The notes: a model not told the origin generated them from the sequence alone. 64,000 nucleotides of DNA from Candidatus Omnitrophota bacterium (GCA_016931055.1 JAFGFL010000091.1:42108-106107); one strand, 5' to 3'; positions 1,189 through 60,543 are shown, counted from the first letter of the stretch. Program-made: numbers and translations.

Positions 1189-1192
1189 TTTG

Positions 1193-2026: not shown

Positions 2027-2027
2027 G

Positions 2028-3889: not shown

Positions 3890-3903
3890 AACGGAGGAAA
3901 GCG

Positions 3904-7243: not shown

Positions 7244-7244
7244 T

Positions 7245-9212: not shown

Positions 9213-9214
9213 TA

Positions 9215-10213: not shown

Positions 10214-10215
10214 TC

Positions 10216-16707: not shown

Positions 16708-17520
16708 ATGAATAATTCAGTTTTGGATGAACGATCGCGTTTTTTAAGGAGAAGAATTGTTGATGTGCTCAAAGAGGCCAAGCGGGGGCATGTGGGGGCC
16801 GCGCTGTCTTTGGTCGAAATATTCCGGGTCCTTTACGATGATGTCTTGCGATATGATCCGAAGAATCCCCGATGGAAGGACCGGGACCGATGTATTTTGA
16901 GTAAGGGGCACGGGTGTCTCGCGCTTTACGCGATTTTGGCGGATAAGGGATTTTTTCCTAGAGAAGAATTGGCCAAATTTTGTCAACCGGACGGGATTCT
17001 CGGAGGGCATCCTGAGATCAAGGTGCCTGGGGTTGAGACATCGTCAGGAAGCTTGGGGCACGGGCTTTCCATCGGGTTGGGTATGGCGCTCAATGCCCGT
17101 TATGAAAAAGCCGATTACCGTGTTTTTGTCGTTATGGGCGACGGGGAATGCAATGAAGGCTCCGTTTGGGAAGCGGCTTTGTCGGCAGGAAAACATAAGC
17201 TGAGTAACCTGACGGCGATCATTGATTACAATAAAATGCAGTCGTACGCGACGACCGCGGAGGTGCAGAATCTTGAACCGTTTGCGGACAAATGGAGGGC
17301 ATTTAATTTTGCCGTCCGGGAAGTCGATGGCCATGATGTTTCGGTGTTGCGCCAGGCATTGAAGAACATTCCGATTGAAAACGGCAAACCGTCAGTCATT
17401 ATTTGCCATACCGTTAAGGGGAAAGGTTTTTCCGGTACGGAATGTAATTTGAAGTGGCACCACAAGAACAAGATCAGCGATGAAGAAATTGATCAGATGT
17501 ATGGGGAGTTGGCTCGATAA
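16708..17520 (+). CDS. transketolase, N-terminal (TPP-binding) subunit of a split transketolase
   Basis: SKGHGCLALYAIL, SSGSLGHGLSIGLGMA, VVMGDGECNEGSVWEA (GDG..xxN TPP motif). Confidence 0.85.
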   Translation: MNNSVLDERSRFLRRRIVDVLKEAKRGHVGAALSLVEIFRVLYDDVLRYDPKNPRWKDRDRCILSKGHGCLALYAILADKGFFPREELAKFCQPDGILGGHPEIKVPGVETSSGSLGHGLSIGLGMALNARYEKADYRVFVVMGDGECNEGSVWEAALSAGKHKLSNLTAIIDYNKMQSYATTAEVQNLEPFADKWRAFNFAVREVDGHDVSVLRQALKNIPIENGKPSVIICHTVKGKGFSGTECNLKWHHKNKISDEEIDQMYGELAR

Positions 17521-18473
17521 TGCGTAAGACTTGTCTAGAAATAGTTTATGAACTTGCCAAAAAGGATAAGCGTGTTTTCTTTATAGGTTCCGACCTTGGT
17601 GAAGGAACTTTGGATAAATATAAGAAAGAAATGCCGGACCGGTTTTTCATGGAAGGGATTAGCGAAGCCAATATTATCGGGATGGCGGCGGGACTGGCCA
17701 TGGAAGGGAAAATACCCTATATAAACACGATCGCGACATTTCTCACCCGGCGCTGTTTTGAGCAGGTGGTCGTTGATCTTGGACTCCATAATCTAAATGT
17801 CCGTCTCTTGGGAAATGGGGGAGGGCTTGTTTACGCGCCTTTAGGGCCGACGCATGAAGCGACGGATGATATCGCGATTATGCGAACAATCCCCCACATG
17901 ACCGTTGTGGCTCCAGCTGATGCTGATGAAATGCGGCGTGTCGTGAACCAAACGATTGATTATCAGGGACCGGTGTATATCCGTATTGCCAAAGGATTTG
18001 ATCCGATTGTAACAAGGGAAGAAGTTCCTTTTAAGATCGGCAAAGCTATTCTCATGAAGGAGGGCGCGGATGCGTTGGTGATAACGACAGGTATAACTTT
18101 GAAGATCGGATTAGATGCGGCAGCGCAATTGAAGAAAGAAGGATTACATATTTCAGTCCTTCATGTGCCGACAGTAAAACCGTTGGATGAGGAACAAATC
18201 CTGGCTAGTGCCAAAAAAGTCCCGGTGATTGTGACCATCGAGGAACATACCGTTATCGGGGGCCTGGGAAGCGCCGTGGCGGAAACAATAGCCGAAGCGG
18301 ATATGTTGTCGTTCAAACGTTTCCGCAGGATTGGGATTCCCGATGTTTTTCCAGACCAATATGGGTCGCAAGCGAGTTTGATGGAGTATTTTGGTATTAC
18401 GGCGGAAAAAACTGCTTTGTTAATCGGAGAGTTGGTTCAGATGAAGGGCAAGGGAGTTGAGATCGTCCAGTAA
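17520..18473 (+). CDS. transketolase, C-terminal (pyrimidine-binding) subunit
   Basis: FFMEGISEANIIGMAAGLAMEGKIPY; C-terminal transketolase_C region; start overlaps the upstream stop (ATAATG). Confidence 0.85.
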   Translation: MRKTCLEIVYELAKKDKRVFFIGSDLGEGTLDKYKKEMPDRFFMEGISEANIIGMAAGLAMEGKIPYINTIATFLTRRCFEQVVVDLGLHNLNVRLLGNGGGLVYAPLGPTHEATDDIAIMRTIPHMTVVAPADADEMRRVVNQTIDYQGPVYIRIAKGFDPIVTREEVPFKIGKAILMKEGADALVITTGITLKIGLDAAAQLKKEGLHISVLHVPTVKPLDEEQILASAKKVPVIVTIEEHTVIGGLGSAVAETIAEADMLSFKRFRRIGIPDVFPDQYGSQASLMEYFGITAEKTALLIGELVQMKGKGVEIVQ

Positions 18474-21316: not shown

Positions 21317-22623
21317 ACACTTTGATCAAGACATTCAGGAAGAAGAGCAAGTCATTCATGATTGAGTTTGGCTCGGGCGATTTGAGAAGGAAATCTGAAC
21401 TTTTGTGGAAAACGTCCAAGTTTTTTTTGTGGCACCTCTTTTTGATCCCGTTATCGATTATAATCATGCCTGGCATCATTGTTTTTACTTTGTTGTTTGA
21501 TTCTTTGATCAGGGTTCGGATCGGGAAGCTGGAGGATGATCGCATTGGTCATTTGGCCCATAATACGGATATCTACCTTCGTCGAATGAAGATGGGAAAA
21601 AAGGTCTGGCGGGAATGGCACTTGATGGTGTGCGATAAAACGGCTAATCGGCAATTGCTTTCCATGATCAAAAGGAGGCTATGTGTTTTGGAACACCCTA
21701 TTTTTCTGAAATTCTACAAAGCGGCTCGCGGATGGTCTTACCCTTCAAGGATATGGGCTGATATGCCATGTGATTATGGCGCGTTTGAAGAATATCGGAT
21801 AGTCAAGCCGCCACTAAGTTTCACGGAAGAGGAGAATGCCAGGGGGCAGAATCAGTTATTACGCATGGGAATTCCTGTTGAGAAATCGTTTGTATGCATG
21901 AATGCTCGGGACAATAGGTATTTAAAGGAACAATGGGTTGGCGGGAAGAAAAATGATTGGCAGGATCAGGATTTTCGCAATTCCAATATTGACACATTTT
22001 TGCCCGGGGCAGAATATCTGGCGTCTCAAGGGATCTATGTGTTGCGGATGGGTCACACGGTCGCGGATCCGCTTATGACAACCAATGAGCGGATTATAGA
22101 TTACGCGACACGCTGGCGTTCTGATTTCATGGATGTCTTTCTTACCGGACACGGCAAATTCTTTTTGGGAGATACTGCGGGGCTCCATTGTGTTGCTTTG
22201 GCGTTTGGTGTTCCCGTTGCGGCGGCGAATTGGATCCCGATTCGATACACGCCTCCGGGAAAACAGGATTTGTTTATACCGAAAAAGCTGTGGGATATCT
22301 CAAGAAAAAGGTTTCTTACCTTTAAAGAAATCATAGAGGGGGTAATTGACCGATGGGAACACGCGGAGCAATATATCCGTTCAGGCATTGAGCCGGTCAG
22401 TAATACCCCTGAAGAGATATTGGAATTAGTCAAAGAGATGAATGAGAGAATTGATGGGGTTTGGACGCCTGATGAGGAGGATGAAGAATTGCAGATGAGA
22501 TATCGGGCGTTATTTCCACCCAGTCATTATTCGTACGGATTTCACGCGCGCGTTGGAGCGGATTTCTTAAGGAAGAATCAGGATTTGCTGGCAGGGAAAC
22601 GACGGGATGTTGTTTCTGTTTGA
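21313..22623 (+). CDS. membrane-anchored hypothetical protein; candidate novel glycosyltransferase
   Basis: Hydrophobic helix FFLWHLFLIPLSIIIMPGIIVFTLL near the N-terminus; 436 aa; C-terminal GHGKFFLGDTAGLHCVALAFGVPVAAANW is loosely GT-B-like; family not recognised. Confidence 0.3.
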   Translation: MNTLIKTFRKKSKSFMIEFGSGDLRRKSELLWKTSKFFLWHLFLIPLSIIIMPGIIVFTLLFDSLIRVRIGKLEDDRIGHLAHNTDIYLRRMKMGKKVWREWHLMVCDKTANRQLLSMIKRRLCVLEHPIFLKFYKAARGWSYPSRIWADMPCDYGAFEEYRIVKPPLSFTEEENARGQNQLLRMGIPVEKSFVCMNARDNRYLKEQWVGGKKNDWQDQDFRNSNIDTFLPGAEYLASQGIYVLRMGHTVADPLMTTNERIIDYATRWRSDFMDVFLTGHGKFFLGDTAGLHCVALAFGVPVAAANWIPIRYTPPGKQDLFIPKKLWDISRKRFLTFKEIIEGVIDRWEHAEQYIRSGIEPVSNTPEEILELVKEMNERIDGVWTPDEEDEELQMRYRALFPPSHYSYGFHARVGADFLRKNQDLLAGKRRDVVSV

Positions 22624-24410
22624 CTCAAAGGAAAACAATGAACGCTTTCAAATTTATTCATGATATTTTTGCCAAGTTCCCGGCTTTAATCATCCAGAGT
22701 ATTGTTCTTCAGGTCATGGTGAGCATTTTAGGCGCGTGCTCTCTGGTTGTTGTAAGCCCTTTGGTTGATGTGTTAACAAACGCCGGTGCCGGTCAGGTCA
22801 GCTCATTAACGCGGAAAGTTTTTGATGTTTTTGCGTTTATCGGAGTTTTTCCGTCATTAAAGGGTTGGTTGCTGATATTCTTTGGTTTTGTTTTCTTGAC
22901 CAGCGTTCTTCAAATAATCGCGTGGCGGTCCATTATGCAGGTTAAGTATACAATGCTTCAAGACTTGATGCGGAACACGTTTGAAGATTTCTTCAAGGCG
23001 CAATGGTATTTCTTCAGCAGCGGGAAACAAGGGACATTAATCAATACCTTCTCCCGGGAACTGACGGTCATTGGAGACGCTTTCAGTTCAGTCGCGCGTT
23101 CTTTTGTCGGGATCATTCAAATGATTATTTTCTTGTTTGTGCCGGTATATATTTCATGGCAGGTCACGTTAATCAGTTTTGGGGTGGCGACTGTCTTCGT
23201 CATTCCGTTCTTCCTTCTGGGAAAACACAATTATAGGCTGGGATTGATGAACACATCAACAGCCAACGAATTTATGGGGATCATCCACGAAAATCTCAGC
23301 TTGACCAAAATCATGCTTGGGTTTGGAAACCAATTCAAAGGGGTGGAGAGTTTAGACCGGGCATTTGGAAAACACAAGAAAGCGGCCGTTGATTCTCTGG
23401 TTATTTCGGAGGCGTGCATATTGTTGTACCGGCCATTTGCCGTTTTTGTCATTATGGCGGCGCTTTTTTCGGCTCAAAAATTCAATGTGCCTCTTTCGGA
23501 GATAATGGTGTTGATCCTTGCGCTGTTTCAAGCGGCCTTGGCCGTCAACAGGCTTGTTCAGGAAAAGAATAAGCTGGAGAACTTCTTGCCCAGTTATGAG
23601 CAGATCGAATCTCTGCGGGCGCGAGCCAGAACGATGAAGCAGGCTTCTGGGAAGATTGAATTCGCCGGTTTCAAGAAGGAATTAAGGGTCGAGAAGGTAT
23701 CATTTGCTTATCCCCAGCATCCGGACGTCTTGCGCGATATTAATATTTCCATTCCGAAGGGGCAAATGATCGCTTTTGTCGGAAAATCAGGGGCGGGTAA
23801 ATCAACATTGATTGATATTATCATGGGATTTTATGAACCGATAAAGGGAAGTGTTTCTTTCGACGGCATGCCTTTACAGGAATTTAATGTCGATTCTTAC
23901 CGAAGGCACGTCGGATATGTTCCCCAAGAGAGCGTTCTGTTCAATGCCAGTATCCGGGACAACTTGTTATGGGCCAAACCGGACGCAACGGACGAAGAGT
24001 TGAGGAATGCGTGTCGGTTGGCTTTTGCGGATGAGTTCATTGATAACCTTGCCGAGAAATACAACACGCTGGTGGGAGACCGAGGGGTCCGCTTGTCGGG
24101 TGGCCAAGTGCAGCGCATTGCTTTGGCTAGGGCGTTATTACGCCGTCCGGACCTTCTCATTCTTGATGAGGCTACAAGCGCGCTGGATACTCATTCCGAA
24201 CGGGTGATCCAGAAAGCCCTGGAAAACATCTTGCATTCGACAACGGTTATTGTTGTTGCTCATCGGCTTTCAACAATTAAGAAAGCGGATTGTATCTATG
24301 TGTTGGACAGCGGCTGCATTATCGAACAAGGGACCTATTCAGTCCTTGTCGAAGACAATAACGCTTATTTCAATTCGATGGTCAAGCTCCAAGAACTCGG
24401 GGTTTCTTGA
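22620..24410 (+). CDS. ABC exporter, fused transmembrane and ATPase domains (MsbA/PglK-type)
   Basis: N-terminal half hydrophobic with about 6 TM segments; Walker A GKSGAGKST, signature LSGGQVQRIALARAL, Walker B LILDEATSALD, H-loop VAHRL. Confidence 0.85.
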   Translation: MTQRKTMNAFKFIHDIFAKFPALIIQSIVLQVMVSILGACSLVVVSPLVDVLTNAGAGQVSSLTRKVFDVFAFIGVFPSLKGWLLIFFGFVFLTSVLQIIAWRSIMQVKYTMLQDLMRNTFEDFFKAQWYFFSSGKQGTLINTFSRELTVIGDAFSSVARSFVGIIQMIIFLFVPVYISWQVTLISFGVATVFVIPFFLLGKHNYRLGLMNTSTANEFMGIIHENLSLTKIMLGFGNQFKGVESLDRAFGKHKKAAVDSLVISEACILLYRPFAVFVIMAALFSAQKFNVPLSEIMVLILALFQAALAVNRLVQEKNKLENFLPSYEQIESLRARARTMKQASGKIEFAGFKKELRVEKVSFAYPQHPDVLRDINISIPKGQMIAFVGKSGAGKSTLIDIIMGFYEPIKGSVSFDGMPLQEFNVDSYRRHVGYVPQESVLFNASIRDNLLWAKPDATDEELRNACRLAFADEFIDNLAEKYNTLVGDRGVRLSGGQVQRIALARALLRRPDLLILDEATSALDTHSERVIQKALENILHSTTVIVVAHRLSTIKKADCIYVLDSGCIIEQGTYSVLVEDNNAYFNSMVKLQELGVS

Positions 24411-25873
24411 TGAAGAAGATGCGAATTATTCCCAGACTAGATGTCAAAGGCCCCAATGTGGTTAAGGGAATCCAGTTGGAGGGTTTAAGGGTGGTCGGTA
24501 AACCTTCCGATCTTGCTCGGAAATATTATAACGAAGGGGCCGATGAGTTGATCTACATTGATATTGTGGCGAGTCTCTATGGACGAAACAATCTCGCGCA
24601 TATCATTGAGGAAACGATCAAAAAGGATGTTTTTATCCCCATTACGGTTGGAGGCGGTATTCGTAGCGTTGAGGATATTGACAAAATATTGCGGTCCGGT
24701 GCTGACAAAGTCGCGATTAACACCGCGGCAGTCAGGAATCCTGAACTCTTAAAGGAGGCCGTGCGCGTGTTTGGTTCTTCGACCATTGTTCTTTCGGTTG
24801 AGGCGAAGAAGATTTCCGATGGAAAGTGGGAGGCTTATGTTGATAACGGAAGAGAGCGAACGGGATTAGACGTTATTGATTGGATAAAGAAAGCGGTAGG
24901 ATTGGGTGTCGGTGAAATTCTCGTTACGTCGGTTGACCGGGATGGTACGCGCTTAGGATTTGATGGCCAATTGATTGATGCGGTTACGTCTGTGGTTTCT
25001 GTCCCTGTCATTGCGTCCGGAGGGGCGGGGGAAATAGGTCATGTGGCTCAGTGTATGGAAAACAAGAAATTGGATGGGATAGCGATTGCCAGTATGTTTC
25101 ATTATGGCGAGTGTACTGTTGGCGAATTGAAGGAAAAACTTTCCCAAGAGCATAGTGATCGAATCAAACGACCTAGCCACAGGGATAGGTTTTCGGAAGA
25201 TAAAGTCGATGCGAATGTATCTATTGTTGATTATCGATTGGGGAATCTATGTAGCGTGACTAATGCGTTTCGGCAGATTGGGGCGAATCCACGGTTGATT
25301 GATACTCCGCAACAGGTCTTGGATTCGCGTTATCTAGTTCTTCCCGGTGTAGGATCGTTTGAAGAGGGAATGAAACATTTGAGAAAAAACAATCTTGATC
25401 AGGCTATTGCGGAATATGTGAACGCGGGCAAACCCTTGCTAGGCATATGTCTCGGAATGCAGTTACTGATGACTAAGAGCAGTGAGTTCGGAGAATATTC
25501 AGGACTTGATCTGATTGAAGGGGAAGTGCTCAAATTTGAAGAAAATATCAGCATAGGACAAGAAGGTTACAAGATTCCTCATGTTGGTTGGAATTCCGTA
25601 TTTTGCAACCAAGATTGGAATGGAACAATCTTGGAGCCTCTGGAAGACGATATGGGGGCCTATTTTGTCCATTCGTATTATGTTCAGCCTAGAAACCGCG
25701 AGAATATCCTTGCGGTAACAGATTATTTTGGCCATCAATTCTGCTCTGTTATAAGAAAAGGGAATGTTTATGGATGTCAGTTTCATCCGGAAAAAAGCGG
25801 TCAAGAGGGGCTTGCGATATTAAGGGCATTTGTAAAGATTCGTCAAAAAGAAGGAGTGCTTAATGTGCGGTGA
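24407..25873 (+). CDS. fused imidazole-glycerol-phosphate-synthase-like cyclase (HisF-like) and glutamine amidotransferase (HisH-like); WbuZ-WbuY type
   Basis: N-terminal half IIPRLDVKG..VVKG, ITVGGGIRS, VAINTAAV (HisF barrel). C-terminal half VLPGVGSFEE, ICLGMQLL (class I GATase Cys), GCQFHPEKS (His). Order is HisF then HisH in one 488-aa protein. Confidence 0.8.
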   Translation: MMKKMRIIPRLDVKGPNVVKGIQLEGLRVVGKPSDLARKYYNEGADELIYIDIVASLYGRNNLAHIIEETIKKDVFIPITVGGGIRSVEDIDKILRSGADKVAINTAAVRNPELLKEAVRVFGSSTIVLSVEAKKISDGKWEAYVDNGRERTGLDVIDWIKKAVGLGVGEILVTSVDRDGTRLGFDGQLIDAVTSVVSVPVIASGGAGEIGHVAQCMENKKLDGIAIASMFHYGECTVGELKEKLSQEHSDRIKRPSHRDRFSEDKVDANVSIVDYRLGNLCSVTNAFRQIGANPRLIDTPQQVLDSRYLVLPGVGSFEEGMKHLRKNNLDQAIAEYVNAGKPLLGICLGMQLLMTKSSEFGEYSGLDLIEGEVLKFEENISIGQEGYKIPHVGWNSVFCNQDWNGTILEPLEDDMGAYFVHSYYVQPRNRENILAVTDYFGHQFCSVIRKGNVYGCQFHPEKSGQEGLAILRAFVKIRQKEGVLNVR

Positions 25874-27092
25874 AGCGCTTGAAACGCAGACTGAAACAAA
25901 GTATGGATTACCCAAAGAGGTTATCTATTGTAAACGATGTGTTATTTCAAATCAGAGGCCGCAATCAACGGTTGAGTTTAAGAACACTTCGGTCGAAAAG
26001 AAAAAGACGATCGCATTTGGAGAAGACGGGATCTGTGATGCCTGCCGATACGCTGAATACAAGGAAACAAAAATTGACTGGACCAAACGGAAAAAAGAGT
26101 TGGAGGCCCTGTGCGATCGTTATCGACGGGATGACGGGTATTGGGATTGCGTGATCCCCGCGAGCGGCGGGAAAGACAGTTCTTTCACGGCGCATACCTT
26201 AAAGTACAGATTTGGGATGCATCCGTTGACGGTCACATGGGCGCCCCATGAGTATACGGAAAGGGGATGGCAGAATTTGCAAGGGATGATCCATTCGGGT
26301 TTGGATAATGTCCTCATCAATGTCAACGGGAAAGTCCATCGTTACCTGACCAAATTAGCGTTCCTGAATTTAGGACATCCGTTTCAGCCGTTTATCATCG
26401 GGCAAAAGTTTGTGGGGCCCAAAACGGCGTTGCTTCGGGATATTCCCCTTATTTTCTATGGAGAAAACCAAGCTGAATACGGTAATGCGATTGGTGAAAA
26501 TGAAAGACCGACGATGGATCCAAAGTTCTTTTCAGCTGAAAAAAGCGATTACGTTGATGTCCATCTGGGTGGCGTTTCCGGCGCGGATCTTCTTAAAGAC
26601 CACGGGCTGACAAAAAATGACCTCGAGATGTATATGCCTCCTTTAAGGAAGGACATCGACGCCAAAGGAGTCCAGGTCCATTATCTGGGGTATTATTTGA
26701 AATGGGACCCGCAAGAGTGTTTTTATTATGCGGCCAAACACACGGGATTTCAGCCTAATTCCGAAAGGACGGAAGGAAGCTATTCAAAATACAGCAGTAT
26801 TGACGATAAAATTGATGTGCTGCATTATTTTACAACGATGGCCAAATTCGGGATTGGGCGGGCGACGTATGATGCGGTTCAGGAGATCCGAAATGGAAAG
26901 ATCACCCGGGAAGAAGGGGTTGCTCTGGTTCGGAAATACGACATGGAATTTCCACAAAAATATTTCCGGGATTGCCTGAAATATCTTGATATCACTGAAG
27001 AGGTATTTTGGGAAACAATTGAAAAGTTCCGCTCTTTACACTTATGGGAAAAGAAAGACGGCCAGTGGGTGTTGAAATATCAGGTTTTTTAA
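25863..27092 (+). CDS. N-acetyl-sugar amidotransferase (WbuX / PseA / LPS-biosynthesis PP-loop family)
   Basis: N-terminal Cys cluster CKRCVISNQRP..CDAC; PP-loop VIPASGGKDSS; AAGGAG RBS 8 nt upstream. Confidence 0.75.
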   Translation: MCGEALETQTETKYGLPKEVIYCKRCVISNQRPQSTVEFKNTSVEKKKTIAFGEDGICDACRYAEYKETKIDWTKRKKELEALCDRYRRDDGYWDCVIPASGGKDSSFTAHTLKYRFGMHPLTVTWAPHEYTERGWQNLQGMIHSGLDNVLINVNGKVHRYLTKLAFLNLGHPFQPFIIGQKFVGPKTALLRDIPLIFYGENQAEYGNAIGENERPTMDPKFFSAEKSDYVDVHLGGVSGADLLKDHGLTKNDLEMYMPPLRKDIDAKGVQVHYLGYYLKWDPQECFYYAAKHTGFQPNSERTEGSYSKYSSIDDKIDVLHYFTTMAKFGIGRATYDAVQEIRNGKITREEGVALVRKYDMEFPQKYFRDCLKYLDITEEVFWETIEKFRSLHLWEKKDGQWVLKYQVF

Positions 27093-27108
27093 ACACGTGG
27101 AGAGGTCA

Positions 27109-28155
27109 ATGGACAATGTGATTGATATTGCAGGGCGCTTGATCGGGAAGGATTATCTTCCGTTTGTGATTGCGGAAATTGGTATTAATCATGAGGGAGA
27201 CATGGACAAGGCCATCCGGATGGTGGATGATGCCAAAGCGGCCGGTTGTGAATGTGTCAAGTTCCAATGCCATGTGATTGAGGATGAAATGGTCCCCGCG
27301 GCAAAATCTGTTATTCCCGGGAATACGACTGAGAATATCTGGGACATCATGGCCAGATGCGCATTGACGGAAAAAGAAGATATCCGGCTGAAGAAATATG
27401 TTGAGTCGAAGAATATGATCTATCTTTCGACGCCGTTTTCCCGCGCGGCTTCCATAAGGTTGGAGAAGATGGGTGTCGCGGCCTATAAGATTGGGTCGGG
27501 GGAGTGTAACAATTATCCGCTAATTGAACACATTGCTTCCTATGGGAAACCGGTGATCCTAAGCACGGGAATGAATGACGTGTCTTCTATTAAGCCTGCG
27601 GTCGGGATTCTTAGGAAATCAAGAATTCCTTACGCCTTGATGCATTGCACATCCATATATCCGACGCCTTACAGTAAAGTACGGTTGGGGGCGTTAACTA
27701 TTCTTCAGAAAACTTTTTCGGATGCTGTCGTTGGATTAAGTGACCATTCTATGGGCATTTATACATGTCTGGCTTCGGTGGTTTTAGGAGCAAGCATTCT
27801 GGAAAAACATTTCACTTCGGATATAAGCTGGCCAGGGCCCGATGTGCCTATATCCATGGATCCGACGGATTTGAGAAACTTGGTGGAAGGGGCACGCGCT
27901 ATTCATCAGGCTTTAGGCGGGAACAAAGCGATCCTTCCGGAAGAGAAACCTGCGATTGATTTTGCGTACGCGACGGTTGTTTCCATTCGCAATATTGTCA
28001 AAGGTGAATCTTTGACGCGCGAGAATATCTGGGTCAAACGGCCCGGAACGGGACGGTTATTGGCGAAGGATTTTAGTCGTTTGTTAGGCAAGAAGGTAAA
28101 ACGCAATATTGCTGCCAATCAGCATATTCAACCGGAGGATGTCATTGGACTTTGA
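27109..28155 (+). CDS. nonulosonic acid synthase, NeuB/PseI/LegI family (copy 1)
   Basis: FVIAEIGINHEGD, CVKFQ, C-terminal SAF domain (VVSIRNIVKGESLTRENIWVKRPGTG); the ATG at 27109 lies inside the track ORF that starts at a GTG at 27097. Confidence 0.8.
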   Translation: MDNVIDIAGRLIGKDYLPFVIAEIGINHEGDMDKAIRMVDDAKAAGCECVKFQCHVIEDEMVPAAKSVIPGNTTENIWDIMARCALTEKEDIRLKKYVESKNMIYLSTPFSRAASIRLEKMGVAAYKIGSGECNNYPLIEHIASYGKPVILSTGMNDVSSIKPAVGILRKSRIPYALMHCTSIYPTPYSKVRLGALTILQKTFSDAVVGLSDHSMGIYTCLASVVLGASILEKHFTSDISWPGPDVPISMDPTDLRNLVEGARAIHQALGGNKAILPEEKPAIDFAYATVVSIRNIVKGESLTRENIWVKRPGTGRLLAKDFSRLLGKKVKRNIAANQHIQPEDVIGL

Positions 28156-29122
28156 TCTGCGACAGTACAGGGCGCTTGTGACCGGGGCTTCGGGGGTTTT
28201 AGGATTGCGTTTAAGTGAGCAATTGCTTAACGCCGGAGCCGAAGTCGTTGGATTCGATCTGGATGGAATGAGTAAACCGCTGCGGACTTTGTCAGGAACT
28301 CATGAAAAGGCGAAAATGATCAGTGGAAATATGTTGGATATGGCCTCGGTGTACGAAGCTGTCAGGATATTGAATCGGCAATCAGGCCGAAAGAGGGCCG
28401 TGTTTCATCTCTCTGCGATGAGTGACGCGAACCAATGCGACGCCGATCCCGAAGAAGCTTTTCGGCAAAATGTTGAGGCGACCGTGAATCTTATGCAGGT
28501 ATGTTCTCAGGAAGGTGTTCAGCGGGTCATATTTCCATCGACGGCTTATGTCTATGGTTCACTGTACAACGAGCTGATCAAGGAGGAGTATGCGATTCAT
28601 CCGGAAAGCGTTTATCCTTTGACAAAACTTTTAGCTGAACAAACGATCCAAGGATACGGAAATATGAACGTGATGAGCTGTGATATTGTCCGGATCAGCA
28701 ATATCTACGGGTCTGGTTCTAAATCAAATACGATCTTAGGGACCATTATGTTCCAAGCTGAGAAGAAAGGCGCGATCTTTCTGCAAAATCTTAAACCGGT
28801 TAGAGATTTTATCTATATTGATGATGTCGTTGACGGATTGAGCAGAATTCTTTTGGCCGGCGATGAGCCAGGGAGCCGTGTATATAATTTGTCAACAGGC
28901 AAAGGAACCTCTGTTGGCGAGTTGGCGCGGGTGTTTTGTCAGTTGAAAGGTCTGTCACCCGAGATGGTGAAATGCAGTGGCTCATCAGGGAAGGAATCAA
29001 GACTGGTTCTTTCCAACGATCTCCTTGAGCGGCGAATTGGTTGGAAGCCGCGATATTCAGTGCTTGAAGGCATACAAAAGACGATCAATGAGTGGGCGGG
29101 GAGGAAATATGCCGAAGCGTAA
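28139..29122 (+). CDS. NAD-dependent epimerase/dehydratase family protein
   Basis: RALVTGASGVLGLRLSEQLL; YPLTKLLAE (YxxxK); start ambiguous (ATG 28139 or TTG 28145 after GGAGG). Confidence 0.6.
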   Translation: MSLDFDLRQYRALVTGASGVLGLRLSEQLLNAGAEVVGFDLDGMSKPLRTLSGTHEKAKMISGNMLDMASVYEAVRILNRQSGRKRAVFHLSAMSDANQCDADPEEAFRQNVEATVNLMQVCSQEGVQRVIFPSTAYVYGSLYNELIKEEYAIHPESVYPLTKLLAEQTIQGYGNMNVMSCDIVRISNIYGSGSKSNTILGTIMFQAEKKGAIFLQNLKPVRDFIYIDDVVDGLSRILLAGDEPGSRVYNLSTGKGTSVGELARVFCQLKGLSPEMVKCSGSSGKESRLVLSNDLLERRIGWKPRYSVLEGIQKTINEWAGRKYAEA

Positions 29123-30296
29123 AATCGCGATATTCACGGGAAACCGCGCTGAGTATGGGCTCCAGTATCCGATCATCAAAGCGGTCGATGTTCATCCAAA
29201 GCTCGAATATTATCTGCTGGTCTCAGGAGCGCATTTGCAGGAGGATTTCGGGTATACCGTCCGGGAAATAGAAGCCAATGGTTTTAAAGTTTATCGTGAA
29301 GTGAAATTGACGATGGGCCGTGATGACCTTTTCGGGACGGTCCAGGCCATCGGTTCGGGAATTCTGAGTTTAAGCGTTATTCTCGATGAATTGAAACCGG
29401 ATATTCTGGTTGTCTACGCGGATCGTTTTGAAGGTTTTGCTGCTGTTATTACCGGAACGCAGATGGGAATACCGACGGCCCACATTGAAGGCGGGGATGT
29501 GACTGAAGGCGGGGCCCTTGATGATTCGGTGCGCCACGCGATGACCAAATTGTCGCATTTGCATTTCACGACGAATAGTGATGCGACAGGGAGAATCAAG
29601 AAACTCGGCGAAGAGCCATGGCGAGTGCACACCGTCGGGTTTCCAGCCATTGATCTGATCTCGGAGAAGAATTACGCTAAACCAGAGGAGCTGGTGGTCA
29701 AATACGGCATCGATTTGGCGCGGCCCGTTGTCTTGTATACGCAACATTCCATCGCGACTGAATTTTCGGACGCGGGTGCCCAAATTGAACCGGCATTGCA
29801 AGCCTTGACAAGGCTGGCGAAGGAAGGGGTCCAGGTTATCATGACTTTTCCCAATAACGACGCGGGAAGCGGGCTCATAATCGATAAGCTCAAGCAGGCT
29901 GGAGCTGAAGCGAAACAAAATATTCAATTGCACGCCAGCTTGGGCCGGTACAACTATCATGGGTTTTTGGCTCATTGCGGAAATGGGGGCAAGGGGGTTT
30001 GTGTTGGGAACTCCTCAAGCGGGATCAAGGAAACGCCTGCGTTCGGATGTCCTACCGTGAACATCGGTGATCGGCAAAGTGGAAGGCTCCGAGCGGAAAA
30101 CGTGCTTGACGTCGGTCACGATGCACAAGCGATTTATCGGGCGATCAGAAAATGCATCGATAACAAACAATTCCGTCAACGGTGCGCCACCTGCAAAAAC
30201 CCTTATGGCACAGGGGATGCGGGTAAAAAGATCGCGGATGTTTTGGCCACAGTGCCCCTTGATCTGAAGCTTTTGCAAAAAAAGATTACTTATTGA
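29109..30296 (+). CDS. UDP-N-acetylglucosamine 2-epimerase (hydrolysing), NeuC/LegG-like (copy 1)
   Basis: KIAIFTGNRAEYG, DILVVYADRFE, HIEGGDVTEGGALDDSVRHAMTKLSHLHF; ATG at 29109 with GGGAGGAAAT RBS. The track ORF from 28977 is a spurious 5' extension through the preceding gene. Confidence 0.75.
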   Translation: MPKRKIAIFTGNRAEYGLQYPIIKAVDVHPKLEYYLLVSGAHLQEDFGYTVREIEANGFKVYREVKLTMGRDDLFGTVQAIGSGILSLSVILDELKPDILVVYADRFEGFAAVITGTQMGIPTAHIEGGDVTEGGALDDSVRHAMTKLSHLHFTTNSDATGRIKKLGEEPWRVHTVGFPAIDLISEKNYAKPEELVVKYGIDLARPVVLYTQHSIATEFSDAGAQIEPALQALTRLAKEGVQVIMTFPNNDAGSGLIIDKLKQAGAEAKQNIQLHASLGRYNYHGFLAHCGNGGKGVCVGNSSSGIKETPAFGCPTVNIGDRQSGRLRAENVLDVGHDAQAIYRAIRKCIDNKQFRQRCATCKNPYGTGDAGKKIADVLATVPLDLKLLQKKITY

Positions 30297-30350: not shown

Positions 30351-30524
30351 ATGGAGGATAATCTGCTAAAAGGGAATTTTGAAGTGAAGAAGCCGATTAA
30401 GCTGGGAGATCAGGAGAAAGAAAAATCTGTCGGCGAAGAACTCAAAAAGAGGGCTTTGGGCACCTTAGGCGGGAGCATGGTTTATATGGAACGGAAGCAT
30501 TTTACCTGGGATGGGGATGAATGA
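30351..30524 (+). CDS. small hypothetical protein (57 aa), translationally coupled to the downstream Maf-like gene
   Basis: Strong SD GGAGGAAGGG immediately before the ATG at 30351; sequence MEDNLLKGNFEVKKPIKLGDQEKEKSVGEELKKRALGTLGGSMVYMERKHFTWDGDE; its TGA stop overlaps the next ATG (ATGA); below the ORF-track length cutoff. Confidence 0.35.
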   Translation: MEDNLLKGNFEVKKPIKLGDQEKEKSVGEELKKRALGTLGGSMVYMERKHFTWDGDE

Positions 30525-31552
30525 TCAATTCAAGCCAAACATTATTCTTTGATCGTATTGTTGACCAGATTTCTGAAATCGGGCTGGATTTTCATGTTAA
30601 TAACATCTTTCAGCATGCCGAGAAGAATTCGGCAGATGTTAAACGGTCCATCAAACAGCTGCCCGCGCTTAAAGGAAATAAAGCGCGCACAGGCATCGTT
30701 ATCAGCGCCGGGCCGAGTCTCCGCAAAAAGAATTCGATCCAAAGAATATTTGACTCCGATTATCAAGGGTCGATTATCGCTATTGATGCTGCTTACATTG
30801 CCTGTCTGAAGGCGGGCCTTATTCCGGATTATGTGGTGACGATGGATCCCAATCCAACCAGAATGGTCCGGTGGTTCGGTGATCATGATTTTGAAAAGAA
30901 TACGGGAAATGATGATTACTATACACGGCAAGACCTGGATGTGGATTTCCGCCGTAATAGTCAGGAACAGAACAGGCGGCATATTGAGCTTGTTAATCAG
31001 CATGGACCTCTCAGTAAGGCTATTATTGCGACATCGGCCCCCAGGAATGTTGTCACCAGGATAAAGGAGGCTCGCCTGGACATGTATTGGTGGAATCCGC
31101 TTATGGATGATCCTACTAGGCAGGGAAGCCTGACGCGCAGACTCTATGAGATGAACGGACTTCCGTGCATCAACACCGGGGGAAATGTGGGGACGACGGC
31201 CTGGATTTTTGCCAATTCGGTCCTGAAACTCCCGCGCGTCGCGATTGTCGGGATGGACCTTGGTTACTATATGGACACGCCGATTGAAATGACGCAGACG
31301 TATTATGAATTGATCCACCATTTGGGGGGACGGGAAAATATCAAGGGATGTTTCAAGGAATATGAATTTCCCCTTGACCAGCAGAAGTATTATACCGATC
31401 CGACTTATTTTTGGTACCGCAAGAATTTGCTGGAGATGCTGGAAAGAGCGCCAGGAAAGACAGTCAATTGCACTGAAGGAGGAACGTTATTCGGTCCGCA
31501 TATCGAATGCGTCCGTCTCGACCGGTTTTTGGAAGAATCTGCTCATGGCTAA
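30521..31552 (+). CDS. Maf-family / DUF115 (MptE-like fold) protein; putative nonulosonic-acid glycosyltransferase
   Basis: GIVISAGPSLRKK...IIAIDAAYIACLKAGLIPDYVVTMDPNP matches the conserved core of motility-associated-factor glycosyltransferases; 343 aa, shorter than Campylobacter Maf proteins. Confidence 0.5.
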   Translation: MINSSQTLFFDRIVDQISEIGLDFHVNNIFQHAEKNSADVKRSIKQLPALKGNKARTGIVISAGPSLRKKNSIQRIFDSDYQGSIIAIDAAYIACLKAGLIPDYVVTMDPNPTRMVRWFGDHDFEKNTGNDDYYTRQDLDVDFRRNSQEQNRRHIELVNQHGPLSKAIIATSAPRNVVTRIKEARLDMYWWNPLMDDPTRQGSLTRRLYEMNGLPCINTGGNVGTTAWIFANSVLKLPRVAIVGMDLGYYMDTPIEMTQTYYELIHHLGGRENIKGCFKEYEFPLDQQKYYTDPTYFWYRKNLLEMLERAPGKTVNCTEGGTLFGPHIECVRLDRFLEESAHG

Positions 31553-33143
31553 AATATTAATAATCAATCCGGTTATTCGCGAAGATGATGAACCCAAGCA
31601 CATCCCTTACGGGCTTGCTTTGTTAGCCAGTATCGCGATGGGACAAGGGCATCTTGTCCAGGTTTATGATGAGAACGCGTGGAGAAAAGGCGATGAGGTG
31701 ATCGCAAAAGTCTGTCAGGCTGATTGTTGGGACGCGATCGCCACCGGTGGATTAACGACGACTTACCGGTCGATTAAAAAGATATTGAACATATGCAAAG
31801 CAAATGCGCCGGAGGCCTTTGTGATCGCGGGTGGGGGGTTCTTCACGAGCATGCCTCATGAAATGATGCGATGGATCCCGGAAATCGATTTGGGGGTGAT
31901 CGGAGAAGCTTTTGTCACCTGGCCGGAGGTTTTAGGAAAAATCGACTCGAAGGATTTTGATTTTTCCCGTACGTTGGGAGTGTGTTATCGGGAGGGTAAT
32001 GAAACAGTACTAACGGGAGTCCGTCCCAATATCAAGGACTTGGACAGGCTGCCGTATCCCGCGTGGGATTTGTTTCCATTGGATATTTATTTCAGAAATT
32101 CCGCATTGTCTTTAAGCGAGGTGGCTTTCCGTTCCAAGAGACGCATGGACATTATGGGAAGTTTAGGGTGCGGCATGGTTTGCAAGTTTTGCTGGCATTT
32201 GGGGACGACGGGCGACATGATCGTTGACGAAAATGATGAAGGGAAAAAGGATGTGCGTTTTACTTACGGGCGTAATATCCGTTATTTTAGCCCCCGCTAT
32301 ATCGTGGAAATGGTGAAAACCCTGGTGCGTAAATATGGGGTTGATTTTGTTTATTTTATCGATGAGAATTTTATGACGATGGATATGGCGAGCGGACGGA
32401 CTTGGTTGAAGGAACTTTGTGAATGTTGGATCAAAGAAGGGTTACAGCCTATGTCGAGGCGCCAGGGATTGCCGGATGAAGAAAATGAGGGAGGGGTGTT
32501 TTGGTCCGGGACGAGCCATGCGGGCCTCGCGTACAGGGATATCCTGGATTTAATGTATCGGGCGGGTTGCGCTTCTTTGGTTTACGGGACCGAGTCGTTC
32601 GATCCGGAAATCCTTAAGAACCTCGGAAAAGGGGTCAATCAGCGACAGAATATCGATGCGCTTAAGACATGCATGGATTCAGGAATTGTTCCCATTCCGA
32701 ATATTATGATCGGTTTCCCTGAGGAAACATTTAAGAGTATCCGCACGACGATTGAATGGATGATTAAGTTAGGCATCCATAGCAAGCCCCATTTTGCCAC
32801 TCCCTATCCAGGATCGGAGTGGTACTACACCTATAAAGACAGTATTATCGAGCAATATAACGGTGATCTGGAGGCTTTTATTAAAGAACTTGGTGATGCG
32901 ATGAAGCTGACGGCCGTCATATCACATAATTTTTCTCCGTTGCAACTTCTTGGTTTGCAGCAAATTGTCATGCAGCGTGACCTGCGGTTGCTGGACCTGG
33001 CGGAGAAGCACTGGGGAGAGGCAGGTACTTTGACCAAGACAATCGCGGAACCCAGGAATTCATTTAACATCATCAAAAGAAAAATCCAGGCTCCTATAGA
33101 GGGGCAAAAAGAAAGAAATAACCCAAATCATGTTAATCGCTGA
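31545..33143 (+). CDS. cobalamin(B12)-binding-domain radical SAM enzyme (class B) #1
   Basis: N-terminal B12-binding fold KILIINPV...IPYGLALLASIAMGQGHLVQVYDEN; radical SAM cluster CGMVCKFC (CxxxCxxC). True ATG at 31545 (ATGGCTAA overlap with the upstream stop); the track ORF from 31362 is an artefactual extension overlapping the Maf-like gene. Confidence 0.75.
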   Translation: MAKILIINPVIREDDEPKHIPYGLALLASIAMGQGHLVQVYDENAWRKGDEVIAKVCQADCWDAIATGGLTTTYRSIKKILNICKANAPEAFVIAGGGFFTSMPHEMMRWIPEIDLGVIGEAFVTWPEVLGKIDSKDFDFSRTLGVCYREGNETVLTGVRPNIKDLDRLPYPAWDLFPLDIYFRNSALSLSEVAFRSKRRMDIMGSLGCGMVCKFCWHLGTTGDMIVDENDEGKKDVRFTYGRNIRYFSPRYIVEMVKTLVRKYGVDFVYFIDENFMTMDMASGRTWLKELCECWIKEGLQPMSRRQGLPDEENEGGVFWSGTSHAGLAYRDILDLMYRAGCASLVYGTESFDPEILKNLGKGVNQRQNIDALKTCMDSGIVPIPNIMIGFPEETFKSIRTTIEWMIKLGIHSKPHFATPYPGSEWYYTYKDSIIEQYNGDLEAFIKELGDAMKLTAVISHNFSPLQLLGLQQIVMQRDLRLLDLAEKHWGEAGTLTKTIAEPRNSFNIIKRKIQAPIEGQKERNNPNHVNR

Positions 33144-34959: not shown

Positions 34960-35682
34960 ATGTTCAAGTCAAAGAAGATTTTGTCGTTTATCGGGGCACG
35001 GGCGGGATCAAAAGGCCTCAAGAACAAGAATATTATTGATTTAGCGGGAAAGCCGCTTGTCGGCTGGACCATCGACGCTTCTCTCGGGTCAAAATATATT
35101 GACCGGACTATAGTTTCAACGGATGGGGAGGAAATTGCCCGTTTCGCAAAAGCATCAGGCGCCGATGTTCCTTTTTTACGTCCTAAAGAATTGGCGGATG
35201 ATGAATCATTGCTTGATGGGGCGATTCAACATGGTGTTCAATGGCTGAGAGAACATGAACAAACGGTTTACGATTATCTTCTTCTTTTGCAGCCGACATC
35301 TCCTTTGAGGACGTCAGCCCATATCGATGCGGCGATAGAATATTTTTTTGAGCATGTGCGGTCTGACCGGGACATGTTGATATCGGTGACTCCTGCGCCG
35401 ATGAAAACGGGCTGGCTTATGCATCAAAATGCTGCTGGTTATGTCCAGTTCAGCCTGGATTTCACCCGGGGTAAACATCGCAGGCAGGAAATGCCTCAGA
35501 TGTATTTTCCGAATGGTTTCATCTATTTTGGCCCTGTGGGGATTATGGAGCGCATTGGCTCGGTTACGGAGATGATGATTCCGTATGTTACAAGTAAGGA
35601 TATATCGGTGGATGTTGATTCACTGGATGACTTGAAGGAAGCAGAGGCATTGATCCAAGGAAGAAGGAGAGCGAATCAGTGA
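34960..35682 (+). CDS. CMP-nonulosonate synthetase (acylneuraminate cytidylyltransferase NeuA/LegF/PseF family)
   Basis: ILSFIGARAGSKGLKNKN (IPARxGSKGIPxKN-type motif), LQPTSPLR. Confidence 0.8.
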   Translation: MFKSKKILSFIGARAGSKGLKNKNIIDLAGKPLVGWTIDASLGSKYIDRTIVSTDGEEIARFAKASGADVPFLRPKELADDESLLDGAIQHGVQWLREHEQTVYDYLLLLQPTSPLRTSAHIDAAIEYFFEHVRSDRDMLISVTPAPMKTGWLMHQNAAGYVQFSLDFTRGKHRRQEMPQMYFPNGFIYFGPVGIMERIGSVTEMMIPYVTSKDISVDVDSLDDLKEAEALIQGRRRANQ

Positions 35683-37568: not shown

Positions 37569-37618
37569 AATGAGCGATGCTAACAAGAAAAACAGCCCTT
37601 AGGGGAGAATTGAATCAT

Positions 37619-38278
37619 ATGCCGAAAGACAAAATTGTTATCATCGGAGCGGGAGGATTTGGGAGGGAAGTCTGCCGTTGGGTCATGGATATGTACCAGG
37701 GACGCAAAGATGTTGTTGAGGGGTTTTATGACGACAATCCAAGAACCCTTGAAAAATTTCCTGATTTGGAGCTTTCGGTCATAGGAAATACGGCTTTTTC
37801 TGAGGCGCGTCAGGATGTTCTATTTGTGTGTTCGATCGGAAACGTTGAGAACCGGGAAAGACTGTTCATGAAAATCAAGAAATTGGGCGGCAGATTTCTC
37901 ACGGTCATTCATCCTTCGGCGATCATGTCTCCCAACTGTCGAATAGGTGAAGGCGCTATTATCGGGCCTGGGGTTGTGATCAGTGAAAGAGCGGATATCG
38001 GGAAAAACGCGGTCTTGAATATTGGAGTGATTTGCGGGCATGATGTCATTGTGGGAGCGCATTCAAACATTTGTCCCGGAGTCAATATTAACGGTGAGGT
38101 TGAGATCAAGCCGAGGGTGTTTATCGGCTCTTCGGCTGTTATTACACCCAGGGCGGTTATCCCTGAGGATTGTGATGTTTCGGCGGGGAGCGTGGTGTAT
38201 AAAAAGTCTGATTTAAAATCAGGAATGTGTTTGCACGGGAACCCGGCAAAACTATTTCCCAAAATGAGGAAGCACTAA
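37619..38278 (+). CDS. NeuD/PglD-family sugar N-/O-acyltransferase (left-handed beta-helix)
   Basis: KIVIIGAGGFGREV N-terminal Rossmann-like motif typical of NeuD/PglD; C-terminal hexapeptide repeats (IGEGAIIGPGVVISERADIGKNAVLNIGVICGHDVIVG); ATG at 37619 after AGGGGAG. Confidence 0.7.
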   Translation: MPKDKIVIIGAGGFGREVCRWVMDMYQGRKDVVEGFYDDNPRTLEKFPDLELSVIGNTAFSEARQDVLFVCSIGNVENRERLFMKIKKLGGRFLTVIHPSAIMSPNCRIGEGAIIGPGVVISERADIGKNAVLNIGVICGHDVIVGAHSNICPGVNINGEVEIKPRVFIGSSAVITPRAVIPEDCDVSAGSVVYKKSDLKSGMCLHGNPAKLFPKMRKH

Positions 38279-38284
38279 CGACTG

Positions 38285-38551
38285 ATGAAGGAAAGGGAAG
38301 CTGAAAGCATGAATGATCAAAATGAGAAAATAAGGAAAATATTCGCCGATGTTCTCGGCATTCCGGTTGAAAAAATTGATGATGACCTTCAATATAATTC
38401 TATCCCTGAATGGGATTCCATCGCGCATATGGCGCTGATCACGGCGCTTGACAAATCCTTCGATATAATGATTGAAACGGAGGATATCATTGACATGAGC
38501 AGTTTCGGAAAAGCCAAAGAAATCCTTCAGAAATATGAGGTTGTCCTATGA
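38285..38551 (+). CDS. acyl carrier protein
   Basis: 77-88 aa; IPEWDSIAHMALI carries the DS(I/L) phosphopantetheine-attachment serine; an alternative ATG at 38309 has a better RBS (AAGGAAAGGGAAG). Confidence 0.7.
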   Translation: MKEREAESMNDQNEKIRKIFADVLGIPVEKIDDDLQYNSIPEWDSIAHMALITALDKSFDIMIETEDIIDMSSFGKAKEILQKYEVVL

Positions 38552-44037: not shown

Positions 44038-44103
44038 ATCAAACAATGAAATCAATGAGAACAGGATTAATGACTAATGTATGTCAATGGGAAAGGGCTT
44101 TAA

Positions 44104-46901: not shown

Positions 46902-46904
46902 AAT

Positions 46905-49315: not shown

Positions 49316-49324
49316 GAACGGACA

Positions 49325-60542: not shown

Positions 60543-60543
60543 T

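Follow-up and report, generated by a model that had tools for sequence, protein, structure and literature searches.

A HisF-like and HisH-like fusion protein encoded beside a WbuX-type amidotransferase gene in a Candidatus Omnitrophota glycan locus: a probable single-chain variant of the acetamidino-sugar machinery

A 64,000-nucleotide stretch of DNA from an uncultured Candidatus Omnitrophota bacterium (GCA_016931055.1 JAFGFL010000091.1:42108-106107; the window in what follows, with positions counted from its first letter) contains two overlapping plus-strand open reading frames (ORFs) that between them supply all three parts of a WbuX/WbuY/WbuZ-type trio, in agreement with an earlier reading made from the sequence alone (hereafter the sequence-only reading). 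The first ORF encodes a HisF-like (beta/alpha)8 barrel joined, in the same chain, to a class I glutamine amidotransferase of the HisH type, and is followed by the second, which encodes a PP-loop amidotransferase of the WbuX family (Table 1). Very probably, the two genes specify a glutamine-dependent amidine-forming system of the WbuXYZ, AglXYZ or PseA-plus-HisHF-paralog type. The WbuXYZ/AglXYZ acetamidino system is already known, and the window represents a fused-architecture variant of it; what is new is an estimate of how frequent the fused pair is, a gene-order explanation for its domain order, a residue signature that separates the paralog from HisF, and the mislabelling of these proteins in public records. 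We use the terms F-then-H and H-then-F to refer to the order of HisF-like and HisH-like domains or genes.

In the fusion ORF, Pfam recognizes PF00977 (His_biosynth) at residues 6-236 (E = 8e-65) and then PF00117 (GATase) at residues 274-475 (E = 2e-20), values that exclude a chance match and bear out the N-terminal barrel and C-terminal glutaminase of the sequence-only reading. The catalytic motifs are those it had described (ICLGMQ at residue 347, QFHPE at residue 458), and alignment reveals no loss of either catalytic residue, Cys348 and His460 matching C84 and H178 of Thermotoga maritima (Tm) HisH. The conservation figures given here are based on an alignment (A1) of the window protein with 117 full-length fusion homologs, 118 sequences in all. 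Throughout this set the glutaminase triad C348/H460/E462 (Tm HisH C84/H178/E180) is invariant, as are the salt-bridge gate of the ammonia tunnel, R6/E47/K101/E170 (Tm HisF R5/E46/K99/E167), and the interface residues W395 and Y419 (Tm HisH W123 and Y138), while the interface pair of D100 (Tm HisF D98) and K463 (Tm HisH K181) is at least 90% conserved. The HisH-like half passes TIGR01855 (209.9 bits, cutoff 105.4), a model that cannot tell WbuY from true HisH.

The AlphaFold2 model built from A1 is confident throughout (mean predicted local distance difference test score, pLDDT, 94.1; predicted template modelling score 0.93; pLDDT of 82-84 in the linker blocks), so that the barrel and the glutaminase are predicted to pack in a defined arrangement. 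A Foldseek comparison with the PDB reached no further than the barrel (template modelling score 0.95 to HisF-LUCA, 4evz), since yeast His7 (1JVN) has its domains in permuted order with respect to the window protein; by sequence the barrel is 51% identical to 4evz (E = 3e-81). Measured from the Pfam barrel end at residue 236 to residue 271, the linker is 30-48 residues long in the majority of homologs, while a subgroup has 69-79. The N- and C-termini of HisF both lie on the HisH-docking face of the TIM barrel, and either order of fusion is therefore geometrically feasible with a linker of 30-40 residues. A WbuX-linked subgroup of barrels carries a C-terminal extension of about 40-55 residues with a conserved EGN(I/V)x(F/Y)L motif. 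This extension is found in separate-gene loci (L006, L007, L013, L015 and L017, e.g., Pedobacter foliorum) and in 18 of the 118 fusions, which are the class with linkers of 69-79 residues.

The second ORF scores 361.4 bits against the NCBIfam WbuX model TIGR03573 (cutoff 203.2) over residues 21-387 of 409; a Pfam search of the same ORF gave no match. Its closest characterised relative is the Legionella pneumophila N-acetyl sugar amidotransferase (NASAT; structure 8WEX), to which it is 57.5% identical over 398 aligned residues (E = 5e-153). The family is defined by an SGGxDS PP-loop and a tetracysteine motif, the latter zinc-bound in the 8WEX crystal (PMC10607449), and the window protein has both in common with the Legionella enzyme: SGGKDS, and the pair C23-K-R-C26 and G-I-C58-D-A-C61, which fits CxxC...[GN]xCxxC. 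The differences are that the window protein starts about 29 residues later than the 8WEX chain (residue 9 aligns with residue 38) and is without two short C-terminal insertions of the latter. As proposed for this enzyme, the window protein would carry out an ATP-dependent conversion of an N-acetyl to an acetamidino group.

The barrel itself carries R10, P16, N17, E132 and N147, and the presence of these residues places the window protein in the clade of glycan-amidation paralogs. We derived this signature in the present analysis from the barrels of the fetched loci; it has no published definition. Position 10 (Tm C9) is Arg in 94% of 17 WbuX-linked barrels and either Arg or Lys in all 17, as well as in all 58 of a larger WbuX-anchored sample, compared with Cys in 67 of 67 his-operon HisFs. 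Position 132, the equivalent of the catalytic D130 of Tm HisF, is Glu in 17/17 of the WbuX-linked barrels and Asp in 67/67 of the his-operon proteins, and positions 16, 17, 147 and 179 also discriminate between the two groups. As a universal marker, E132 was considered on these first counts (17/17 versus 0/67) and then rejected, since the larger sample keeps Asp in 8 of 58; of positions 10 and 132, only R/K10 is universal among the sampled WbuX-linked barrels. In the 118 fusions position 132 is E in 98, Q in 18 and H and D in one each, and in the F-then-H proteins among 149 representatives of 50%-identity clusters it is E, Q, A, V, T, H or Y, a variability unlike that of a catalytic residue. 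The first catalytic Asp, D12 (Tm D11), is invariant in the fusions, and it is the second (Tm D130) that is Glu in the window. These comparisons support the assignment of the barrel as a WbuZ/AglZ-type paralog rather than a histidine-pathway HisF.

The opposite possibility, that this is the histidine-pathway enzyme after all, had been named beforehand in the sequence-only reading, and is contradicted by the signature residues, the genomic context and the hidden Markov model (HMM) thresholds. It would require a genuine bifunctional imidazole glycerol phosphate (IGP) synthase to sit by chance in a glycan locus, and we consider this highly improbable, although the best PDB and NCBIfam matches are HisF and HisH, the HisH half is well above its cutoff (210 versus 105), D12 and both phosphate-binding loops are retained, the NCBI name of the protein is HisF, and the search for his genes was confined to the 64-kb window. 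Against these similarities, the barrel falls below the cutoff of the HisF equivalog TIGR00735 (281.9 bits versus 294.55), the catalytic D130 is Glu here and any of several other residues in relatives, and position 10 is Arg where his-operon HisFs have Cys. Moreover, hisA, hisB, hisI and other his genes are absent from the approximately 60 ORFs of the 64-kb window, a WbuX gene adjoins every fusion examined, and genuine single-chain IGP synthases in the database show the opposite domain order. No second HisF or HisH match occurs within the window.

The relationship between domain order and function extends beyond these examples. Among the 149 representatives, 27 of the 29 F-then-H proteins are without the HisF signature, whereas the H-then-F proteins, a set that includes HisH-HisA-HisF and HisH-HisA-HisF-HisIE chains, have Asp132 in 34 of 35 cases and the full Cys10/Asp132 pair in 29; domain order is thus a good proxy for function. 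The two exceptions (P0143 and P0149) are F-then-H single chains with a true HisF signature (Cys10, Gly16, Arg17 and Asp132), and judging from these residues may be genuine IGP synthases fused in reverse order. The literature consulted on his-gene fusions (PMC1963479, PMC11237513) describes only the HisH-then-HisF (HIS7) order. Relatives of 707-933 residues were considered as triple fusions that include WbuX and rejected, being histidine-pathway fusions: they are HisH-HisA-HisF, HisH-HisA-HisF-HisIE, or H-then-F proteins with a long unidentified C-terminal extension.

The association with WbuX is conserved wherever the fusion was followed at the DNA level. In five fused homolog loci of unrelated origin (L001-L005, from GCA_900218215.1 on a contig of ~1 Mb, a Promethearchaeota metagenome-assembled genome (MAG) in two independent assemblies, a 312-kb ENA contig and a Woesearchaeota MAG), the gene directly beside the fusion encodes, in every case (5/5), a WbuX homolog with 54-60% identity to the window protein. 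The neighbours in L001-L003 include NeuB, Epimerase_2, DegT, short-chain dehydrogenase/reductase (SDR), Hexapep and CTP_transf_3 genes, and those in L004 include CTP_transf_3, SDR and a faint Epimerase_2 match. When all loci with the three functions are taken together (70 loci), the gene orders, with X for WbuX, are FHX in 34, XFH in 30 and HXF in 3, with WbuX on the opposite strand in the remaining 3, so that in 67 of the 70 the F and H genes stand side by side with F first. The setting of the WbuZ family, in which the barrel gene of a saccharide locus has genes for a HisH homolog and a WbuX-family protein as neighbours, is also that of the window. The Promethearchaeota loci (L002, positions 6752-10676, GCA_048941805.1, and L003) are special in that the fusion is flanked on both sides by opposite-strand WbuX paralogs, which are divergent (60% and 32% identical to the window protein); here two amidotransferases that differ in their targets may draw on a single ammonia-supply module.

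How common the fused arrangement is depends on the measure used. When close relatives of WbuX are taken and only loci with sufficient flanking sequence are counted, the genes are separate and adjacent in F-then-H order in 33 and form a single ORF in 3, while in 2 more H and F are separated by about 1.2 kb, and 5 have neither; the fused share of WbuX-linked HisF/HisH pairs is therefore about 8% (3/38). A scan of species-representative genomes gives one fused pair in 13 WbuX-linked pairs. The separate-gene form occurs in cultured bacteria, e.g., Pedobacter foliorum and a Neisseriaceae isolate. In absolute terms, all of the top 120 database clusters (90% identity) have both domains and 118 are full-length, which gives at least 118 fused clusters, and the F-then-H architecture together with the signature recurs in 27 further clusters at 50% identity; named sources are Omnitrophica, Woesearchaeota, Nanoarchaeota and Promethearchaeota. 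The description of the fusion as uncommon in the sequence-only reading thus holds relative to the separate-gene form and fails in absolute numbers: the architecture is in the minority without being rare. Many apparent fusions in the genome scan were rejected because hisH-hisA-hisF operons had been merged into one match, which ORF analysis separated.

The separate wbuZ-like and wbuY-like genes are often only 20-50 nt apart, and their usual order accounts for the F-then-H order of the domains; two such neighbours most likely became one gene when the stop codon separating them was lost. The same arrangement might suggest that the stop was lost instead through a sequencing or assembly error, since separate adjacent F and H genes are the majority arrangement and the one database entry with 100% identity belongs to the same MAG. 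We regard such an artefact as vanishingly improbable. The other 117 cluster representatives (45-75% identity) are full-length fusions from independent assemblies, linker length is conserved within each of the two size classes given above, and a single ORF is confirmed at the DNA level in five loci and in three more from the metagenome scan; independent assemblies and a conserved linker are not compatible with an assembly error.

In the mechanism that we propose, glutamine would be hydrolysed by the C-terminal HisH-like domain, with Cys348 as the nucleophile and His460 and Glu462 completing the triad. The ammonia released would enter the bottom of the barrel through the Arg6-Glu47-Lys101-Glu170 gate, pass along the barrel core, and be handed to the separate WbuX-like enzyme, on which the barrel would presumably dock. 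There, the PP-loop and ATP would activate the carbonyl oxygen of the sugar N-acetyl group, as has been proposed from the 8WEX structure, and ammonia would displace the activated oxygen to give sugar-N-C(=NH)CH3. The fusion would set the ratio of glutaminase to conduit at 1:1 in one chain. The description of the TIGR03572 (WbuZ) family reportedly proposes essentially this division of labour, with a HisH paralog that makes ammonia and a HisF paralog that conducts it to WbuX, and notes that the WbuY and WbuZ homologs can be dispensed with if ammonium is plentiful.

The barrel might alternatively be more than a conduit, binding a phosphorylated ligand (a nucleotide-sugar or an adenylated intermediate) at a remodelled C-terminal face, and either gating the glutaminase allosterically or performing part of the reaction itself. 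Residues D12, K20 and N105/T106 and the glycine loops GGG 82-84 and GG 205-206 vary little or not at all across the 118 fusions, and R10, P16, N17, E132 and N147 are conserved within the WbuX-linked clade despite differing from HisF, which suggests an altered site under selection rather than a decayed one. The wide variation of position 132 in the broader F-then-H family speaks against a catalytic role, and the TIGR03572 description reportedly has the channel role alone; this alternative appears quite improbable. A more specific version, suggested by the same conserved face (R10, N17, E132 and N147, with D12, K20 and the phosphate-binding loops), is that the barrel could be a ligand-gated ammonia valve that senses what WbuX holds, be it the nucleotide-sugar or the adenylated intermediate, and turns the glutaminase on, which would parallel the allosteric effect of N'-[(5'-phosphoribulosyl)formimino]-5-aminoimidazole-4-carboxamide ribonucleotide (PRFAR) in IGP synthase; we think it unlikely.

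For the target of the amidine-forming system, we judge an N-acetylated 5,7-diamino nonulosonic acid of legionaminic type, presumably produced by the NeuB-like and NeuC-like genes and destined for a surface glycan, to be about evenly poised between right and wrong. It is favoured by the downstream genes (NeuB-like, SDR, NeuC-type, CMP-transferase-like and NeuD-type) and by the similarity to the Legionella enzyme. The NeuB-like gene begins 5 nt past the WbuX stop and probably makes the sugar skeleton that is amidinated; it scores 364 bits with TIGR03569 (cutoff 400) and 225 bits with PseI, in both cases under the cutoff. The NeuD-type protein would provide the sugar with the sort of N-acetyl group on which WbuX-type enzymes act, and CMP-Leg5Ac7Ac (the CMP-activated, diacetylated legionaminic acid) is a plausible specific substrate. 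The same machinery could instead act on another sugar, such as a 2,4-diacetamido hexose, a FucNAc-type or ManNAc3NAcA-type sugar, or the product of a second nonulosonic-acid cassette in the window. WbuX-family members act on chemically diverse substrates (WbpG on ManNAc3NAcA, WbuX on L-FucNAc; PMC10607449), and the window is rich in amino-sugar genes, with three DegT genes, about nine SDR epimerases/dehydratases, two NeuB/NeuC pairs, KdsB and heptose genes. We nevertheless consider another sugar rather unlikely, given the 57.5% identity to an enzyme of L. pneumophila, the O-antigen of which is described as a homopolymer of a 5-acetamidino nonulosonic acid, the closeness of the NeuB-like gene, and the repeated occurrence of the closest relatives of the window WbuX and fusion beside NeuB and Epimerase_2.

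The second cassette (positions 43018-50752) contains a NeuB (43018; 498 bits) and a NeuC (45738; 475 bits), both over their equivalog cutoffs, as well as a DegT aminotransferase, a 395-residue ORF without a family match (48128-49315) and an SDR with a CBS domain. These NeuB and NeuC proteins are only 36% and 35% identical to the copies near the amidotransferase, which makes it probable that the two cassettes yield distinct nine-carbon sugars.

Several points weigh against the interpretation of the two genes as an amidine-forming system with the roles given above. The second NeuB/NeuC pair and the many amino-sugar genes leave the target sugar uncertain. The barrel scores 266.6 bits with the WbuZ model TIGR03572, under its cutoff of 299.7; as the match spans the full model (1-232 of 232), the shortfall reflects divergence rather than truncation, and because the barrel lies under both the HisF and the WbuZ cutoffs (and, at 195 bits, under the cutoff of 310 for AglZ/HisF2, NF038364), the HMM thresholds alone do not decide the matter. 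D12, K20 and both phosphate-binding glycine loops are retained, and are not obviously needed by a passive conduit. No in-frame fusion of WbuX to a HisF-like or HisH-like partner was found in the 70 loci or among the 149 representatives (0/70 and 0/149), so that physical contact between WbuX and the barrel has no Rosetta-stone support. In the literature, we found no WbuXYZ system reconstituted in vitro, and nothing on how the HisH and HisF paralogs feed the WbuX-type component. That ATP is split into AMP and PPi is a proposal for 8WEX that comes from a structure without an activity assay, in a paper which itself states that little is known (PMC10607449).

The known systems most similar to that of the window are the following. 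WbuX/WbuY/WbuZ of E. coli O145 and LfnA of P. aeruginosa O12, which act in L-FucNAm synthesis, have the same three parts in a polysaccharide locus; there the three are separate proteins and the substrate is a 6-deoxy hexosamine, whereas in the window the HisF-like and HisH-like parts are one chain and the substrate is probably a nonulosonic acid. A further difference is that the window barrel falls just under the WbuZ model cutoff. AglX/AglY/AglZ of Methanococcus maripaludis is the archaeal version of the trio, and places an acetamidino group on a glycan sugar, a ManNAc3NAmA-type sugar of the N-glycan; it also consists of separate proteins, and shows the trio to be common to Bacteria and Archaea, as is the fusion (Woesearchaeota, Nanoarchaeota, Promethearchaeota). 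King et al. 2008 (J Bacteriol 190:1671), for LfnA/WbuX, and Jones et al. 2012 (J Bacteriol 194:2693), for M. maripaludis AglXYZ, reportedly provide genetic work that backs the three-gene model. The Legionella lipopolysaccharide locus encodes, in addition to NASAT, a HisF (lpg0749), a HisH paralog and NeuB-type nonulosonic acid genes, with HisF and HisH as separate proteins rather than fused as in the window. Finally, IGP synthase (HisH-HisF heterodimer 1GPW and 1KA9; eukaryotic HIS7 1JVN) has the same two folds, glutaminase triad, gate and interface residues, and HIS7 demonstrates that a single-chain glutaminase-barrel protein works. It differs in having D130 in the cyclase where the window has Glu, in its setting in histidine rather than glycan synthesis, and in the order of its domains, HIS7 and prokaryotic HisHF fusions being HisH-then-HisF (PMC1963479) and the window protein HisF-then-HisH.

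Table 1. Features of the fusion gene, the WbuX-like gene and their neighbours (positions in the window)
Feature	Position	Strand	Remarks
Fused ATP-binding cassette (ABC) exporter, HepA/MsbA/PglK-like	22620..24410	+	stop overlaps start of fusion gene
Fused WbuZ-WbuY gene (HisF-like then HisH-like)	24407..25873	+	488 aa
HisF/WbuZ-like (beta/alpha)8 barrel, aa 5-249	24419..25153	+	
E132 (Tm HisF D130 equivalent)	codon 24800-24802	+	
Interdomain linker, about aa 250-270	25154..25216	+	
Class I glutamine amidotransferase (HisH/WbuY-like), aa 271-478	25217..25840	+	
C348	codon 25448-25450	+	glutaminase nucleophile
H460	codon 25784-25786	+	glutaminase triad
E462	codon 25790-25792	+	glutaminase triad
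Ribosome-binding site AAGGAG for WbuX-like gene, within 3' end of fusion gene	25851..25856	+	sequence read directly
WbuX/NASAT-family N-acetyl sugar amidotransferase, 409 aa	25863..27092	+	
Tetracysteine motif C23/C26/C58/C61	25929-26045	+	aligns with C44/C47/C79/C82 of 8WEX
PP-loop SGGKDS, aa 101-106	26163-26180	+	aligns with 122-SGGKDS-127 of 8WEX
NeuB-family nonulosonic acid synthase with SAF domain	27097..28155	+	PF03102, 245 bits
SDR epimerase/dehydratase, weak LegB/GalE similarity	28109..29122	+	
NeuC-type hydrolysing 2-epimerase	28977..30296	+	TIGR03568, 380 bits, over cutoff 236
CMP-nonulosonate cytidylyltransferase-like (PseF/NeuA family, under cutoff)	34960..35682	+	
NeuD/PglB/VioB-family sugar N-acetyltransferase	37577..38278	+	TIGR03570, 175 bits, over cutoff 161

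The genes listed in Table 1 are tightly packed. The fusion ORF opens at a TTG, and the adjoining ATG at 24410 (487 residues), which is the start used by the NCBI copy, is probably the true one. This ATG shares the sequence TGATG with the TGA stop of the upstream ABC exporter, through which the two genes are probably translationally coupled. The ATG of the WbuX-like gene lies 6 nt downstream of its AAGGAG, and the gene overlaps the fusion by 11 nt, including the stop codon of the latter. For the SDR and the NeuC-like protein, the ORF starts (TTG 28109 and GTG 28977) are probably too early, and ATG 28139 (after GGAGG) and ATG 29109 (after GGGAGG) are likelier because they fit the starts of the profile matches and leave the short overlaps typical of this operon.

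Acetamidino groups confer positive charge on the O-antigens of Legionella and Pseudomonas and on the flagellar glycans of Campylobacter and archaea, and on surface glycans they affect adhesion and immune recognition (e.g., PMC11637443). A fixed 1:1 unit of glutaminase and conduit could simplify reconstitution, and, if the barrel is a valve, the single-chain F-then-H form would be the most tractable entry to reconstituting or imaging a three-component ammonia channel. As a rule for annotation, an F-then-H protein with Arg or Lys at position 10, a residue other than Asp at position 132 and an adjoining WbuX gene may be taken as a glycan-amidation protein. The NCBI protein identical to that of the window is labelled "imidazole glycerol phosphate synthase subunit HisF", and its relatives HisF or HisH; such labels could lead genome-based metabolic reconstructions to overestimate histidine prototrophy in Omnitrophica and in the DPANN and Asgard archaea. 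Otherwise, the fusion and WbuX are an expected component of a surface-glycan locus.

The whole window (1-64000) has about 60 ORFs of at least 150 residues, nearly all on the plus strand and mostly overlapping or abutting, and all of its 2 kb bins have a positive GC skew (0.12-0.23). As nearly all of the annotated genes are related to sugars or glycans, the entire window is taken to be a single, very large surface-glycan locus on one strand; we found no paper that ties Omnitrophota to nonulosonic acids. Three B12-binding radical S-adenosylmethionine enzymes (31362-34950 and 44104-45741), with weak best matches to C- and P-methyltransferases and BchE/HpnJ, suggest that a sugar is methylated or rearranged by radical chemistry, an unusual feature in a nonulosonic-acid cluster. 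The stretch at 38548-43005, which separates the two nonulosonic-acid cassettes, encodes LuxE-like and LuxC-like proteins together with a FabG-like reductase and an AMP-forming acyl ligase, possibly a module that makes an acyl or aldehyde substituent for sugar N-acylation. A branch towards another unusual sugar, a cyclitol or a keto-acid is indicated by the regions 424-9212 and 16708-18473, which encode an HpcH/HpaI aldolase, KdsB (CMP-Kdo synthetase, over cutoff), a GFO/IDH/MocA oxidoreductase, a SIS isomerase, a D-2-hydroxyacid dehydrogenase, a 3-dehydroquinate-synthase-like protein and a split transketolase. Four large ORFs, 7245-9212, 35679-37568, 55054-56712 and 60499-62034 (655, 629, 552 and 511 residues), have no Pfam match at 1e-5, and the 629-residue ORF has no NCBIfam match either; they are candidate polymerases, ligases, flippases or novel glycosyltransferases. 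Finally, a 343-residue ORF at 30521-31552 has a weak, partial match to PseD, a flagellin-modification protein (45 bits, residues 41-126); it is possibly a Maf-type nonulosonic-acid transferase, in which case the glycan may decorate a protein.

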